A stretch of 64,000 nucleotides of DNA, from the IMG/VR virus record IMGVR_UViG_3300011217_000001, positions 96,001 to 160,000 of that record. One strand, 5' to 3'. This document shows, in pieces, positions 1 through 47,362 of the stretch (position 1 is its first letter; every line of letters starts with the position of its first letter). Both the position numbers and the translations under genes were made by a program. The stretch comes from a virus (taxonomy: Duplodnaviria > Caudoviricetes). Below the pieces are notes generated by a model. The model ran no database searches. It was not told the DNA's origin and was given only the letters and a program-made list of their open reading frames with translations.

Positions 1-1722
1 GCTAACCAGGACACGCGTCTGCTGTACGTCCCGGCTGAAATGGTGACCTACTTCGCCATCGACTACAACAAGTTCGGCATCGGTCGTTCGCTGCTGGAAG
101 ACACCAAGATCCTCGCAGGCATGCGCGCGATCTTGATGTTCGCCAACACGATGGGTTCGCTGCGTAACTCGGTGGGTCGTACGAAGCTGAACATCAAGCT
201 CGATGAACGTGACGATGATCCGGTGGACACCGTCGAGTTCATCATCGGCGAGTTCTCCAAGAACCGTCAGCAGGCTTACCCGCTGGGCGCTTCCAATCCG
301 TTGGACATCATCTCCTTCCTGCAGAACGCGGGTGTGGAAGTGGTGGTCAGTGGTAACGATGGCTACCCGAACACGGAAGTCAACGCAGAGGACTTCGCAG
401 CACAGGTCAACAAGCCGGATCTGGATCTGGACAACCTGCTGCGCAAGAACCACTCGCTGTCACTGGGTATCCCGGTGGAGATGGTGGACAACGCCCAGGG
501 TCCGGAGTTTGCGACCACGGCAGTGACCAACAACCTGCTGCTGACCAAGCGCGTGATGAAGACGCAGGAACAGTTCTGCCCGCATGTCACCGACTTCGTG
601 CAGAAGTACACCTACAACTCCGGCACGCTGCTGGATCGTCTGCGCAAGATCATCATCGACAACAAGGCCAAGCTGGGTGACGAGGTTCGTCAGTACATCG
701 CGTCCCACGGTCAGGAGCTGAACGTCGACAACGTGGTCAAGCTGTTCATTGATGCCATCATCTGTGAACTGCCGTCTCCGGACACGACCAAGGTCAAGGT
801 TCAGGTCGAGGCTTACAAGGAGTATCGCGAGGCGCTGGACGAAGTGCTGCCGGCCTACATCAGCAAGGAAATGTTCGATGCGGGCAATGACCAGAACACC
901 GACGTTGCCTCGGCCATCGAAGGACTGGTGGCGCTGACCAAGGCTCACTACCTGCGCCAGTACCTGCGTACCAACAACATCATGCCGGAACTGTTCGACC
1001 TGATGGAGCTGGACGAGAAGGGTGTTGGCAAGGTGGACATCTACGAGTCCTCGGCCGAGCACATGAAGGTGATGTACAAGGTCTTCGGCAAGTACATCGA
1101 CAAGATCCAGAAGCTTGTCGAGAAGCGTGAACCTGAAGACGAAACTCCGCCGGATGACACCCCGCCGGGTGGCGAGGAACCGGGCGCTGGCACCGACGAA
1201 TTCGGTATGGATACCGGAACCGAGGATAACCCTGACGAAACTCAGGATACCGGTGAGGAGGAGGAACAGCAGGAGGACGAAGGGCAGGAAGAAGAGGAGC
1301 AGGAGGAGGACACTGGTGAGGAGGAAGAGGCAGCGGATGATACCACCGATGCTGCTGACACCGGCGAAGCAGAGGAGGAAGCCTCCACTGAATCGATCGA
1401 CAACCTCTACCAGGAAGCCGACGATCGCACCTACTTCTACGATGCTGTGAGTCGTCCGATCAACCCGCTGCTGCGCGCTGCCCACAACATCGAGCCTGAA
1501 CTGATCGAAGTGAGGGACATGCGCTTCAACCTGCAGCAGGCTGGTTCGCTCTCCCCGCGTCTGGTCACTCGTGCCGACTACAGCTACCCGCTGATCGGCG
1601 TGCGTGAGGAAGATGGCCGTGTGGTCATCCTCGATGGCATGAAGCGTCTTGCTCATGCCAACACCGATGGCGCCTTCCGTCTGCCCGTCAAGCTCGTCTC
1701 GATGGAACAGGCCAAGCGTTAA
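1..1722 (+). CDS. Portal protein (phiKZ gp129-like), 5'-truncated by window edge, with acidic linker and C-terminal ParB/Srx-like domain
   Basis: Frame open from base 1 (ANQDTRLLYVPAEM...). YFAIDY..GIGRSLL segment and position next to the nvRNAP/capsid/helicase block match the phiKZ layout. C-terminal 'YPLIGV..DGRVVILDGMKRL' resembles ParB N-domain. Confidence 0.7.
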   Translation, partial: ANQDTRLLYVPAEMVTYFAIDYNKFGIGRSLLEDTKILAGMRAILMFANTMGSLRNSVGRTKLNIKLDERDDDPVDTVEFIIGEFSKNRQQAYPLGASNPLDIISFLQNAGVEVVVSGNDGYPNTEVNAEDFAAQVNKPDLDLDNLLRKNHSLSLGIPVEMVDNAQGPEFATTAVTNNLLLTKRVMKTQEQFCPHVTDFVQKYTYNSGTLLDRLRKIIIDNKAKLGDEVRQYIASHGQELNVDNVVKLFIDAIICELPSPDTTKVKVQVEAYKEYREALDEVLPAYISKEMFDAGNDQNTDVASAIEGLVALTKAHYLRQYLRTNNIMPELFDLMELDEKGVGKVDIYESSAEHMKVMYKVFGKYIDKIQKLVEKREPEDETPPDDTPPGGEEPGAGTDEFGMDTGTEDNPDETQDTGEEEEQQEDEGQEEEEQEEDTGEEEEAADDTTDAADTGEAEEEASTESIDNLYQEADDRTYFYDAVSRPINPLLRAAHNIEPELIEVRDMRFNLQQAGSLSPRLVTRADYSYPLIGVREEDGRVVILDGMKRLAHANTDGAFRLPVKLVSMEQAKR

Positions 1723-1730
1723 TAGGAACT

Positions 1731-1761
1731 GGGAGGCCCTTCGGGGCCTCCCTCTATGTCC
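1731..1761 (+). terminator. Hairpin plus TATGTC after portal gene
   Basis: GGGAGGCCC-TTCG-GGGCCTCCC then TCTATGTCC. Confidence 0.7.
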
Positions 1762-28188: not shown

Positions 28189-29316
28189 TTAGCCGCGTTC
28201 GGCCACTTCAATACCGACGGCCTGCATCGAAAGAGCGACGTCTGCAGGGGTCATGTAGTGCAGGCCCTCCTGACGGATGCCGAGCAGTCGTTCGATCTGT
28301 TCGCGCAGGAACGGCGCCATGATCTTCTGGTCAATGCCCTCGGTGCCGTACTGCGGACAGTACTCGAAGATGCCCCACTTGTGGTCAGCGGTGATGAACA
28401 GGTCCACCGAGTTCAGGGGGATCTTCAGCTCCTGAAGTACGGTGCTGACTTCGTTGAAGACCGTGCTCAGTTCGTACTGACCGGCAGGCTTGGCCTCGTC
28501 CAGGAACCAGGTAACGCCGGTGGCCTGCTTGTGATCGAAGTTGTTGCTGTCCTGATGCAGCGGCAGGGTATCGCGCTTTCGCTTGAACGTCAGAGCGATC
28601 TTCGACTCATGGTCCAGGATCAGACGATACTCGGCTACGACATTGGACACCTGCTCCTGTACGAAGAAGCCCTGTTCGGCCAGAGCGACCAGACCTTCGT
28701 CAATGTCGCCGTGACCGATGTGATACTCCACATGCGGTTTGAGCGATTCCAGACTGGTCAGGAAATCTTCCTTCTTGGCCGCGCCCTTGATCAGGACCAT
28801 CAGCGCCGCCGGGGTGACCTTGTCCATGTCAGCCACGATCTGCCCGATACCGCGAGCACCATCGATCGGCTTGACTACCACGCGACCATGGATCTCACTA
28901 CCGAAAGTGGAGTTGCGCTTGTCAGCGAACTGGGTGCTATAGATGCGTGGGCTGATGAAGTCCTTCACTTCCGGCAGACCACGAACAACGGCAGCCATGC
29001 GCAGCGTCATGGCAACCTTGCTCTCGCGCTTCATGTAGTGCACACCATCGGCGTACTCTTCCAGGTGCGCATTGTTGCGGCGTGTATCCGAATCAGTACC
29101 GCCGCCGCTGATGAACGTTGCTCCATCGGTGAGGATGGTCAGGTCGGAGTTCTTCACGACCATGTTGTTTTCGTCGATCACGTAACGGAAGTCGTTCGTG
29201 GCGACAATGCGCGTCTTGCCATCGGCCGCAATCCACTGCGGCGGAAGATGCTGATACTGGGTCAGCAGATGCGAGACGGCCACCACAAGGGTGCGTTCGA
29301 TTTTGGGATTGGTCAT
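28189..29316 (-). CDS. ATP-grasp (RimK-like) ligase
   Basis: VVVKPIDGARGIG, FFVQEQV, EYRL, VDLF...IFEYC. Confidence 0.7.
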   Translation of the reverse strand: MTNPKIERTLVVAVSHLLTQYQHLPPQWIAADGKTRIVATNDFRYVIDENNMVVKNSDLTILTDGATFISGGGTDSDTRRNNAHLEEYADGVHYMKRESKVAMTLRMAAVVRGLPEVKDFISPRIYSTQFADKRNSTFGSEIHGRVVVKPIDGARGIGQIVADMDKVTPAALMVLIKGAAKKEDFLTSLESLKPHVEYHIGHGDIDEGLVALAEQGFFVQEQVSNVVAEYRLILDHESKIALTFKRKRDTLPLHQDSNNFDHKQATGVTWFLDEAKPAGQYELSTVFNEVSTVLQELKIPLNSVDLFITADHKWGIFEYCPQYGTEGIDQKIMAPFLREQIERLLGIRQEGLHYMTPADVALSMQAVGIEVAERG

Positions 29317-29343
29317 TATCGTGGCAAAGAAAAAGGTTGAGTG

Positions 29344-29757
29344 TTACTTGTCCGCCGGAACGACGGTGGTGATGAAGTGCTGTCCATTGGCGAAATGGAT
29401 CATCACGAACACACACGTGCGCTTGCGCTTACCGCGCTCGCGGATACCGTAGACGCCGGTGGGGGTGAAGATCTGTGCGCTCGGCAGCTTCTGGCGGGGC
29501 AGGGTGGAAACGATCGACTGGTCGAGGTCGACACCCTGGACGCGATGGCCGACGATCTCTTCGAGCTTGGTCAGGGTGTCCTTGTCGCTGAGATGCATCT
29601 TCAGCCACGGGCGCACTGCGGAGTAGGTCGTCTTGTTGGACGGAGCGCCACGCAGGATCAGCCGGTTGATCTGCTCCGCCTGATCGTGGGTGAGGAGGCT
29701 GGGCTCCTTGACGACAGGACGCGCAGGCAGGTGAGTTGCAACACGGGAAAGAGCCAT
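29344..29757 (-). CDS. Hypothetical protein
   Basis: 137 aa, SD AAGGAG. Confidence 0.65.
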   Translation of the reverse strand: MALSRVATHLPARPVVKEPSLLTHDQAEQINRLILRGAPSNKTTYSAVRPWLKMHLSDKDTLTKLEEIVGHRVQGVDLDQSIVSTLPRQKLPSAQIFTPTGVYGIRERGKRKRTCVFVMIHFANGQHFITTVVPADK

Positions 29758-39878: not shown

Positions 39879-40484
39879 TCAGTGACTTCCCCAGACTTGC
39901 CCGGCCTGCGACTGGAAGTCCATACGGATCAGTGAGCGATCGTGATACATCCACACAGTGAATGCTCCTTTCACGTCACTCGGTTCAAGCCACATCTCAA
40001 CTCCGGTACGGAACAGCGCGTACAGGAAACGACGCATGGCAGCCCCATGACTGTACCACTTACGTTCATCAGGCCCAGCGCCCCCACACCACTTCTCAAC
40101 TTCCATCTTGAATGGTTCGTCAGAACTGGTCGGGGAGTAGACAATCGCCTTCTCGTGCCGGGGCGGCATGTCACCCTTGGTATTGACAAGAGTAACGTTG
40201 AGCACCTTGAGCATGTCCATACTGCCCAGACCATGCAAACTCAGGAACCACATACGACGCCCCGGTACACGCAGGTTGTGGTAGATGTGGGTCGAATAGC
40301 TGGTGGGCTTATAGAAGTACTCGGCAAAGCGCATGAACAGTGGCGCAAACCACATCGGCAGTTTCTCCGACATCAGTGTCCGGAGAAACTCTTCCTGTCG
40401 CCAGAGGACGTCCACGGGGAGGTCGGCCATCCAGCTTGCGGAGTTTACAACGATGTGACGTTGAACTTGGCTCTTCTTCTTCAT
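39879..40484 (-). CDS. Hypothetical protein
   Basis: 201 aa, coupled. Confidence 0.6.
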   Translation of the reverse strand: MKKKSQVQRHIVVNSASWMADLPVDVLWRQEEFLRTLMSEKLPMWFAPLFMRFAEYFYKPTSYSTHIYHNLRVPGRRMWFLSLHGLGSMDMLKVLNVTLVNTKGDMPPRHEKAIVYSPTSSDEPFKMEVEKWCGGAGPDERKWYSHGAAMRRFLYALFRTGVEMWLEPSDVKGAFTVWMYHDRSLIRMDFQSQAGQVWGSH

Positions 40485-40957
40485 TCGTCGCCGCTCTCAT
40501 CCACGAACTCGTTGGTCAGATCAAATCCGATAATGCGCTGGATCTTCGACCAACGTACCCCTTCGCCAGTTGGACTTGGTTCGGTACGCCCAAAGAAACG
40601 CATGGCCAGAATGACCACGTCATCGACATGGTTGTCCAGATGTTCGACCATTGCCTGGCCCATCGGACCGGTGGGTTGGATGATCCCGTAGATGGCATCC
40701 TCACGGATATCCACCGACACGACTGCCAGGGCTACCGACAAGTCGTTGATGTATCCCTGTCGATGAATGCGCTCGGACATGGACATGCGTTCGCTGATCA
40801 GGGGTGGTCCGTATTCACCACGGATCAGATTGTTGGTCAGCCGCTCCTTGAAAGGCAGGCCAATATCTTCGTTGAAGAACTCATCGAACACCTGTTTACT
40901 TACGCCGTTGTTCTCATCGAACTTCAGCAGACGTGCTGCGTACTGCTTGGTTTCCAC
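40481..40957 (-). CDS. Prohead protease (phiKZ gp175/S80)-like paralog, probably inactive
   Basis: LIRGEYGPP, GIIQPTGPMG, LAMR, IIGFD; His and Ser positions substituted. Confidence 0.6.
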   Translation of the reverse strand: METKQYAARLLKFDENNGVSKQVFDEFFNEDIGLPFKERLTNNLIRGEYGPPLISERMSMSERIHRQGYINDLSVALAVVSVDIREDAIYGIIQPTGPMGQAMVEHLDNHVDDVVILAMRFFGRTEPSPTGEGVRWSKIQRIIGFDLTNEFVDESGDE

Positions 40958-45586: not shown

Positions 45587-47296
45587 TCAGCGATACTGCC
45601 TGAGCATCTTGCGGGCCATCGCGTTGTACGAGTACAGGATGAACTTGAACATCCGCATGTTGTCAGTCGTGACGCGGTAACGCATCTCGCTGCTCAGCTT
45701 CAGCGCACGCTTCACGTAGAAGCGCTGGTCGCGGTCGCCCTGGAAGCCCGGGGTGGACAGCATGTGCACTGCGGTGTTGAAGATGGCAACACCGGCCGGA
45801 CCCAGCACGTAGGTCTTCAGGTATTCCAGAGCCGAGCGCTTGCGGCTGAAGCCCTGGGCGACCTTCAGGAACGCACGGGTGATCGCACCGATCTTCTCCG
45901 GCGGCAGCACCGGAACGAGGATGCGGCCCACGCGGGTGCCGTCGGAGTCTTCAAACATCCGGGTGGGGATGTTGAAGCTGGCGTACTTGTCCAGGAACTG
46001 GGTCGTACGGTCCGTACCGTCGTAGGTCGTGGACTTGTTCTCGAACATGCGGCGACCACCCGGGATCGGGTACTGCAGCTGCGCCTCGGTCAGGGCCGAG
46101 CGCGGATCACGCCACTTGCCCGGCAGGGCCGCCCAGCGACGCTGGAACTCGACGTCGGTGATCTTGTTCAGACCACTGACCAGGCCGATGTTGGTCTGGT
46201 AGGCGTCCTTGGCCACGTCCACGAAACGACCGGTGACGTACTCGGCCAGCTGGGCGTAACCGATCAGGTGACCGGCCAGGTCCGTCGGCAGTTCGCCGTT
46301 GCGGTGCAGCGAGGACATGTTGACGACGACTTCGGCCTTGCGCGGCTGGCGCTGGGACGGGGTGTCGGCGACCTTCTTCATCAGGCGACCCAGCATGAAC
46401 GCGCCGGTTTCGATGGCGTTGTAGAACGCCACGTCGCGACGGATCAGGGCTGCCAGCGCACGCTTGGCGATGTTTTCCTGGGAGATCACCAGGTTGCCGC
46501 GCATCTGGTCGATGGCTTCGGTGGACACCAGCAGCTTGCCGTTGTCAGCCTTCTCGTAGGACAGCTTGACGGCCGGGGTGTTGTACACCGCAGCGATGGC
46601 TTCCAGCGCGACTTCGGCTTCTTCCACCGCAGCTTCGTCGGCGAAGCCGCCTTCTTCGTTGACGGTTTCCACGGCGCCCTGGAATTCGTTCAGGGTGTCG
46701 TTGGCTGCTTCGGCTTCGGATTCGCGCTCACCGGTTTCGATGATGGCTTCTTCTTCGTCCATCAGCTCTTCGGTGGAGACCTCGGTCTCGTCCTCGGCGG
46801 CGGCCAGTTCCGCTTCTTCTTCAGCGGCGGCAGCGGCGTCGGCTTCGGTAGCGCCATCGTCGAAGTTCTCTTCTTCCACGTCGCCGTCTTCGTCGACCGG
46901 TTCACCTTCGGCCGCTTCCTCGTCGAACGATTCGGTGGTGAGCTGGTAGTTCAGGCCGGCGATCAGGTTCTGGGCGCGGGCCGATTCCACGGCGACCTGC
47001 GGACCCATCACGTTCAGGCGTTCGACGATCTCGTCGCTGACACCCTGCAGGCCCTCGGCGTCCTCGAAGGACTCCATGGCCGGTGCCTTGTTCAGGGGCA
47101 GGAGTTCACGAGCGCCAGCGCGCAGGGCGATGGCCAGGAACGGGGACTTGCCGCCGTTCTTCTTCAGCTGTGCACCCACCGACTCCATGGCCGGGAGGAT
47201 ACGACGGACGGAGCGGTCGACGTGGATCAGCTGGGCGGAATCGGCGACTGCCTGTTCCAGCTTCTCACGTGCAACACGCTGCTGCAGAGTCTTCAT
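45587..47296 (-). CDS. Internal head protein with acidic propeptide (phiKZ inner-head type)
   Basis: Many S/A-X-E sites (AME x2, AVE, STE x2, ALE, SQE), Glu/Ala-rich N-half, strong codon bias. Confidence 0.75.
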   Translation of the reverse strand: MKTLQQRVAREKLEQAVADSAQLIHVDRSVRRILPAMESVGAQLKKNGGKSPFLAIALRAGARELLPLNKAPAMESFEDAEGLQGVSDEIVERLNVMGPQVAVESARAQNLIAGLNYQLTTESFDEEAAEGEPVDEDGDVEEENFDDGATEADAAAAAEEEAELAAAEDETEVSTEELMDEEEAIIETGERESEAEAANDTLNEFQGAVETVNEEGGFADEAAVEEAEVALEAIAAVYNTPAVKLSYEKADNGKLLVSTEAIDQMRGNLVISQENIAKRALAALIRRDVAFYNAIETGAFMLGRLMKKVADTPSQRQPRKAEVVVNMSSLHRNGELPTDLAGHLIGYAQLAEYVTGRFVDVAKDAYQTNIGLVSGLNKITDVEFQRRWAALPGKWRDPRSALTEAQLQYPIPGGRRMFENKSTTYDGTDRTTQFLDKYASFNIPTRMFEDSDGTRVGRILVPVLPPEKIGAITRAFLKVAQGFSRKRSALEYLKTYVLGPAGVAIFNTAVHMLSTPGFQGDRDQRFYVKRALKLSSEMRYRVTTDNMRMFKFILYSYNAMARKMLRQYR

Positions 47297-47362
47297 TGAA
47301 AGGGGTTCCTTGAGGGCTAAAATCCGCCGCAGCAAACTGCGGCGTCATATATTAGCTGGCGC

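Follow-up and report, generated by a model that had tools for sequence, protein, structure and literature searches.

Why does the portal protein of a nucleus-forming jumbo phage run on, beyond its acidic tail, into a further folded domain, and what becomes of that domain in the head? The question is raised by the first gene of the window, the whole 64,000-nt stretch of viral DNA that was analysed, taken from a virus record (G000) of 230,357 nt with Xanthomonas phage Xoo-sp14 as a near relative. Markers of the Chimalliviridae are present in the genome: chimallin (gp54 homolog, E 5e-24) and split RNA polymerases (homologs of gp55, gp178 and gp180). The portal frame begins at genome position 94585, 1416 nt ahead of the window, and continues as a single open frame to window position 1722 (Table 1). 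Its product matches phiKZ gp129 (9XPE, E 3e-122) and Goslar gp36 (11ED, E 4e-107), and by sequence comparison the homology takes in the wing, stem, clip and crown of the solved portals, which bears out the first-pass annotation in calling the N-terminal part a portal. The phiKZ protein is dodecameric (PMC13250141), and the portal encoded here probably also forms a dodecamer at the head vertex. It resembles gp129, gp36 and SPN3US gp81 in being homologous over residues about 55-937, in having protease motifs in the N-terminal region and an acidic C-terminal tail, and in the gp128-type gene that lies head to head with the portal gene (here a gp128 homolog at G000 91841-94537). It differs in what follows the tail: the tails of those portals have no folded domain behind them, and only the Xoo-sp14 clade has one. 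Further upstream, at G000:C1:85072-91781 (L001), is a series of tandem paralogs, four of which begin with MD(V/I)CPLAK; their counterparts in a sister phage (L011) match DUF7941, a filament family described for Goslar.

Table 1. Features in and directly behind the 3' part of the portal gene, in window coordinates.
Feature	Window position	Strand	Remarks
3' part of portal gene	1..1722	+	full ORF G000:C1:94585-97722, 1045 aa; residues 473-1045 in window; phrog_3004
C-terminal half of folded portal body, ending in crown	1..1125	+	alignment to gp36
Acidic low-complexity tail	1126..1380	+	ancestral to phiKZ-type portals
ASTES, predicted head-protease site after Glu936 (codon 1390-1392)	1381..1395	+	invariant in clade; cleavage predicted
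ParB/Srx-fold domain, phrog_17560	1393..1719	+	109 aa, 12.5 kDa, pI 6.1; purifying selection
YQE	1408..1416	+	Tyr and Glu family-invariant and retained
Leu993	1561..1563	+	Arg in 58/58 other family members
DGMKR, GxxR motif	1633..1647	+	residues 1017-1021; Lys1020 for the His of 58/58 others
GC-rich hairpin	1731..1752	.	directly 3' of portal stop

The existence of the fusion itself is confirmed: the open frame is uninterrupted in this genome, in its relatives and in an independent contig. Xoo-sp14, an isolate genome, possesses an equal fused ORF that is annotated just as a putative virion structural protein, and the same fusion is found in P0004-P0006 and L008-L010. An independent contig of 232,020 nt (run X1) covers positions 700-2000 unbroken with eight substitutions, of which none creates a stop; in run X3, positions 1060-1511 are covered unchanged by one contig. 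No stop codon interrupts the linker in either contig or in the relatives. Contigs of the RNA runs X4 and X5 were short and are no evidence of expression. EL, Huxley and the window's own genome each have the domain as a separate gene, which would suit an error of assembly or gene calling that joined two genes. Such an error has next to no probability, given that the fusion is in frame both in an isolate and in several assemblies made independently, and that no in-frame start codon with a ribosome-binding site lies ahead of the domain. The latter also rules out an internal translation start. Read-through into a neighbouring gene is ruled out by Xoo-sp14 and by the X1 and X3 contigs, and at the two sister-portal loci covered no gene for the domain lies downstream.

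Portals were surveyed among the best 120 of 203 matches, which range from 574 to 1829 aa in length. The idea that the acidic tract is a special linker is not borne out: an acidic tail of about 50-290 aa ends all 115 complete unfused portals among these best 120 of 203, and the tract is the ordinary portal tail of these relatives. In the window's portal it comprises residues 848-936 (window 1126-1392), 89 aa that include 43 Asp or Glu and one basic residue; between more distant members of the clade, tail identity is 61-73%, with indels. The crown of Goslar gp36 is formed by residues 778-923 of 969, at the top of the ring (PMC13742148). Alignment to gp36 places the acidic tract at and after the crown end, and therefore the tail and the domain should point into the head interior. 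Only four of the best 120 of 203 portals have a tail that runs on into a folded domain, all in the Xoo-sp14 clade, and a hidden Markov model of the domain found no match in the other 116. Alignment with other portals thus upholds the fusion as unusual among phiKZ-type portals. The broader statement that it is not a standard portal feature stands for that group and falls for phages at large: cargo on the portals of other phages is known (PMC5512222), and the domain itself occurs on an unrelated portal, P0020.

In the portal tree, the fused portals group as a single clade (SH-aLRT 100) whose sister group is the unfused portals P0047-P0050; these terminate in A-x-E followed by the stop. At two of the sister loci, a hairpin resembling that of the window lies directly 3' of the stop, and no gene for the domain is nearby. 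A single in-frame insertion directly ahead of the stop codon is the simplest history. The near-identical genome of run X1 contains a second matching copy of the window's hairpin (1731-1758) at another place, and the hairpin may be a repeated regulatory element. The C-terminus of phiKZ gp129 is STE↓S (the arrow marks a possible cut, here and below) plus four residues; like this protein, the unfused portals P0053, P0069, P0072 and P0092 have T-E-S near the tail end and then a short peptide. Trimming at the C-terminus may therefore be more widespread among portals.

The proposal of a ParB/Srx fold for the last 110 or so residues was upheld by an AlphaFold model, Foldseek, a wide structural search and a profile match to SbnI. 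The domain matches phrog_17560 (E 3e-9), and a 42-sequence profile matches SbnI (E 4e-6) and ParB (E 0.06). For the model of the domain (AF2, pLDDT 89.6), all 50 listed Foldseek matches in the PDB are ParB, Noc, Srx, SerK or SbnI-type proteins, none of them at E 0.001. The wide structural search ranked a sulfiredoxin highest (6KY4, Z 8.2, rmsd 2.7 A over 75 residues), followed by KorB and SerK; 11 of its 12 top rows are of the ParB/Srx type, and the unrelated row has Z 2.0. The best viral counterparts, themselves predicted models, are the extension of the RP31 beta-prime subunit (TM 0.88) and EL gp75 (TM 0.83). A Pfam scan of the domain alone gave no match, and other family members have weak matches to ParBc_2, ParB_N and VapB-like families; an Atlas label, no more than a lead, reads 'VapB antitoxin'. 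The core fold (Z 7-8) and the GxxR phosphate motif are shared with sulfiredoxin, SerK/SbnI and the N-terminal CTPase domain of ParB, all of which lack the extra N-terminal hairpin-helix with Tyr-x-Glu. Unlike sulfiredoxin, the window's domain has no catalytic Cys in the motif, and unlike SerK it has no SerK C-terminal domain. It also differs from ParB in having neither a helix-turn-helix nor a C-terminal dimerisation domain (the protein stops 24 residues past GxxR) and no parA neighbour; without those two domains it is not a partition protein, and specific DNA binding, as first suggested, is unsupported. A homodimer prediction with a score of 0.04 speaks neither for nor against a dimer.

The 58 other members of the family show no variation at seven positions: Tyr, Glu, a first Arg, Pro, Gly, His and a last Arg. 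The fused copy retains Tyr-x-Glu, Pro and D-G-x-x-R, but R993L and H1020K are found in all four fused sequences, against Arg and His in 58 of 58 others, and the portal-fused copy is alone in the family in missing this pair. The changed Arg precedes an ADxxxP segment, and the changed His belongs to DGxHR; in canonical ParB, a basic residue stands ahead of the Arg (GERR). Five more positions, conserved in 48-57 of the 58, are altered solely in the fused clade, where W981F (Trp in 57/58 elsewhere), Y957R (Tyr in 54/58) and changes of a Gly, a Ser and a second His are seen. The reading of DGxxR as a sign of nucleotide binding, made in the first-pass annotation, is thus doubtful for the fused copy, in which two family-invariant residues are replaced; nucleotide binding in an altered form may persist, GxxR being retained (PMC12704722).

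The remodelling appears to have been rapid and then to have ended. On the stem branch, the domain accumulated 2.5 substitutions per site versus 0.53 in the portal body, as estimated from separate trees with unlike sampling. Among more distant clade members, dN/dS is 0.13-0.22 in the domain versus 0.12-0.23 in the portal core, and the fused domain is 87% identical to that of Xoo-sp14, versus 62% between the stand-alone paralog and its Xoo-sp14 ortholog. A burst of change that then gave way to conservation points to a new role more than to decay, and with family-invariant residues exchanged and the altered sequence subsequently fixed, the nucleotide chemistry of the family has probably been lost. 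The stand-alone paralog, of 120 aa and pI 9.7 (G000:C1:167254-167616, minus strand; L007:1471-1833), has the family Arg and His intact and is encoded directly upstream of a thymidylate synthase-like gene. Origin of the fused domain from this paralog or from the RP31 beta-prime extension is unsupported: in the domain tree the fused copy does not group with either, although its long branch is placed unreliably.

The head protease of phiKZ-type phages recognizes S/A/G-x-E. In its plain form this motif is uninformative, occurring 13 times per 1000 aa and eight times in the portal tail. A scan of about 64,000 aa yields only 12 instances of the narrower pattern S-[M/T/L]-E-S, five of which belong to the portal, capsid protein and protease; of [S/A]-x-E-S there are four instances in the portal and two in the N-terminus of the capsid protein. 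STE↓S behind the tail, which the first-pass annotation had read as a head-protease site, thus fits the rare motif that the phage has in its own capsid protein, portal N-terminus and protease. The other portal [S/A]-x-E-S sites, at 181, 223 and 301, are in or near the region of the SPN3US portal cuts, ATE-161 and AQE-254, both of which are N-terminal (PMC10052503). When the tail was shuffled, [S/A]-x-E-S fell in the last 12 residues in 0.5% of shuffles, and ASTES is invariant across the clade although the flanking tail drifts. A head protease gene is present at G000 28663-29430 (minus strand; PF20034, E 5e-71; gp175 homolog, E 2e-35), and its product has SLE↓S at 202, the same position at which SPN3US gp245 cleaves itself, AQE-203 (PMC10052503). 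Cleavage after Glu936 by this gp175-type protease is likely on the strength of these motifs. Processing at the C-terminus has a precedent in T4 Alt, which is cut near that end. In SPN3US, about 80% of the head proteins remain uncut (PMC10052503), and the Goslar portal is modelled from residue 5 (PMC13742148); it retains its N-terminus, and therefore portals are not always processed. The site may be no more than a tail end retained from the ancestral portal, like that of phiKZ gp129. Two other genes of the window, both on the minus strand, relate to head processing. One, at 40481-40957, is a second, shorter gene resembling head maturation proteases (phrog_3014, E 1e-10; partial PF20034, E 1.5e-6). 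The other, at 45587-47335, encodes a protein of 569-582 aa with three A-x-E-S motifs near the N-terminus and no PHROG match, a candidate processed head or ejection protein.

Members of phrog_17560 elsewhere (EL gp75, Huxley gp11, PA5oct, the RP12/RP31 extension) have an equal domain, often behind a protease-like motif. In the Ralstonia phages RP12, RP31 and FLC, the domain is C-terminal on the beta-prime subunit of the virion RNA polymerase (gp180 homolog), behind AVE↓S and ALE↓G. The phiKZ head packages the virion RNA polymerase and a helicase, and the polymerase is injected (PMC13282480). PA5oct gp343 is annotated as a structural protein detected by ESI-MS/MS. A Glu two residues ahead of the invariant Tyr is found in 18 of 43 members versus a background of 6%, a comparison whose p-value is overstated by the relatedness of the members. 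Many stand-alone members begin with M-x-L-x-E ahead of Tyr-x-Glu, a leader that is absent from EL gp75, Huxley gp11 and the paralog in the window's genome. The family seems to behave like head cargo in unrelated phages, judging from these sequence contexts. A literature search of incomplete coverage found no described function for phrog_17560 and no description of it as cargo.

Several other carriers were noticed. An intact domain, unmentioned in the annotation, forms the C-terminus of the N-terminal beta-prime subunit, behind two protease-like motifs, in RP31 (L003:3330-5324), RP12, FLC1-1B, FLC4-3B and P0039. In P0171 (L028:2340-4655), a chimallivirus SNF2/DEAD helicase has the domain at its C-terminus, behind VE↓S and SME↓D. 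In P0016 (L024:5001-5750), and also in P0164-P0166, the order is domain, SME↓ and GNAT acetyltransferase, with a gene for a PhuZ-type tubulin nearby. The unrelated portal of P0020 (L021:5001-9878) is a DUF1073-type polyprotein that unites the domain with a pyrophosphatase and a GNAT domain, and the MuF proteins P0011 and P0014 also contain the domain; R-x-D motifs recur at the domain borders in P0020 and P0014 and are perhaps sites for another protease. A gp180-like beta-prime tail in P0030 (L025:385-1983) has two ParB-like domains and a third domain (phrog_29772), which by eye could be ADP-ribosyltransferase-like; they are set apart by ALE/ANE motifs, and the upstream frame is interrupted by an intron or frameshift.

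These features suggest the following course of events. A small gene of this head-carried family, encoding a ParB/Srx fold, joined the 3' end of the portal gene in frame, once, in the ancestor of the Xoo-sp14 clade, as the single clade of fused portals shows. If the acidic tail exits the crown on the inside of the head, as the Goslar structure implies, the twelve copies of the domain would begin their existence inside the prohead, where the gp175-type protease most likely cuts after Glu936 and would set free a folded 12.5-kDa protein starting with SIDNL. Remodelling after the fusion replaced the invariant Arg, the His and several other conserved residues before the new sequence became fixed. 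The released domain would probably be without the nucleotide chemistry of the family, a non-catalytic or re-specified binding module that may act in head maturation or, ejected with the DNA, after ejection; the intact paralog in the same genome may retain the original activity. This is the reading that we favour, at what we judge to be an even chance: twelve copies enter the prohead on the portal tail, the protease releases them, and they then serve, within the head or once ejected, as binders that are non-catalytic or re-specified. A wider version is tentative and stands clearly below it: phrog_17560 could be a widespread and so far undescribed virion-delivered module, repeatedly joined to any head protein at hand (portal, virion RNA polymerase, helicase or MuF) behind the motif of the local prohead protease, with the portal of this clade loading twelve copies of a repurposed pseudo-enzyme. 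Once released and ejected, these might, for instance, bind a host defence or act as a decoy for it.

Two other fates of the domain are each unlikely, to a similar degree. One is that it is released as a still active nucleotide-binding enzyme or sensor that serves as an early host effector, as was proposed for the DdrB-like ParB domains of polyvalent proteins. GxxR, Asp, Tyr-x-Glu and Pro are retained under purifying selection, the replacement of His by Lys may compensate for the lost Arg, and the co-passengers of the domain elsewhere are effector-like (GNAT, pyrophosphatase, LigD phosphoesterase, cell-wall hydrolase); moreover, ParB folds bind several NTPs, with a specificity that is unreadable from sequence (PMC12704722). 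Against an active effector stand the alteration, only in the fused clade, of the two positions invariant in all 58 other members and of the five further conserved ones, and the presence of an intact paralog in the same genome. The other is that the domain stays attached, STE↓S being the relic of a former C-terminus, and that the twelve copies, tethered over the crown, assist in nucleating the prohead core, retain ejection proteins or touch incoming DNA. Loss of pocket residues followed by conservation suits such a structural role, no C-terminal portal cleavage is described in the literature covered, and S/A-T-E-S also stands near the tail end of portals that lack the domain, phiKZ gp129 and several others among them. 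Yet ASTES is invariant amid a freely varying tail, it matches the sites in the other head proteins of this phage, and other carriers of the domain also have a protease-like motif at the boundary, all of which favours release.

Release need not imply a function: the domain might be nearly neutral, a C-terminal propeptide that is removed and thrown away and that is folded only to spare portal assembly. The 115 relatives among the best 120 of 203 do without the domain, and its pocket residues are lost, but its dN/dS matches that of the portal core, its identity to the Xoo-sp14 copy far exceeds that of the paralog, and truncated copies, sought among the clade sequences, were not found. We consider this reading quite improbable, well below either an active or a tethered domain.

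If the domain is loaded and released as we favour, the locus bears on an open question, namely how nucleus-forming jumbo phages select and load the proteins that they inject: it suggests that the acidic C-terminal tail of a chimallivirus portal can be a cleavable loading point that delivers an exact copy number. This is testable in Xoo-sp14, which is a cultured isolate. The locus also draws attention to a ParB/Srx family, as yet uncharacterised, whose members appear among the head cargo of phages unrelated to one another, and the intact and remodelled copies in one genome are a ready-made pair for finding the ligand of the family. A literature search of incomplete coverage returned no report of portal-borne cargo in Chimalliviridae; the principle of portal-borne cargo is already known, and its case on a chimallivirus portal was not found reported.

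Close known systems also include the polyvalent proteins and the internal proteins of T4. Effector domains on portal and MuF proteins, among them PBECR, 2H and pyrophosphatase domains on portals, were described by Iyer et al. 2017, together with head-packaged ParB-like domains such as that of P1 DdrB, in an account without mention of phiKZ (PMC5512222). The fused portal resembles these polyvalent proteins in that an enzyme-like domain is joined to a head protein, portal or MuF, for packaging (PMC5512222); it differs in having a single cargo domain, in being a chimallivirus portal, and in having the motif of the phage's prohead protease in place of a built-in peptidase. With the capsid-targeting sequence and internal proteins of T4 it would share the principle that an attached part carries the cargo into the prohead, where a protease then frees it by a cut after Glu. 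In contrast to T4, the carrier here is the portal itself, with the cargo at its C-terminus, and the copy number would therefore be fixed at 12.
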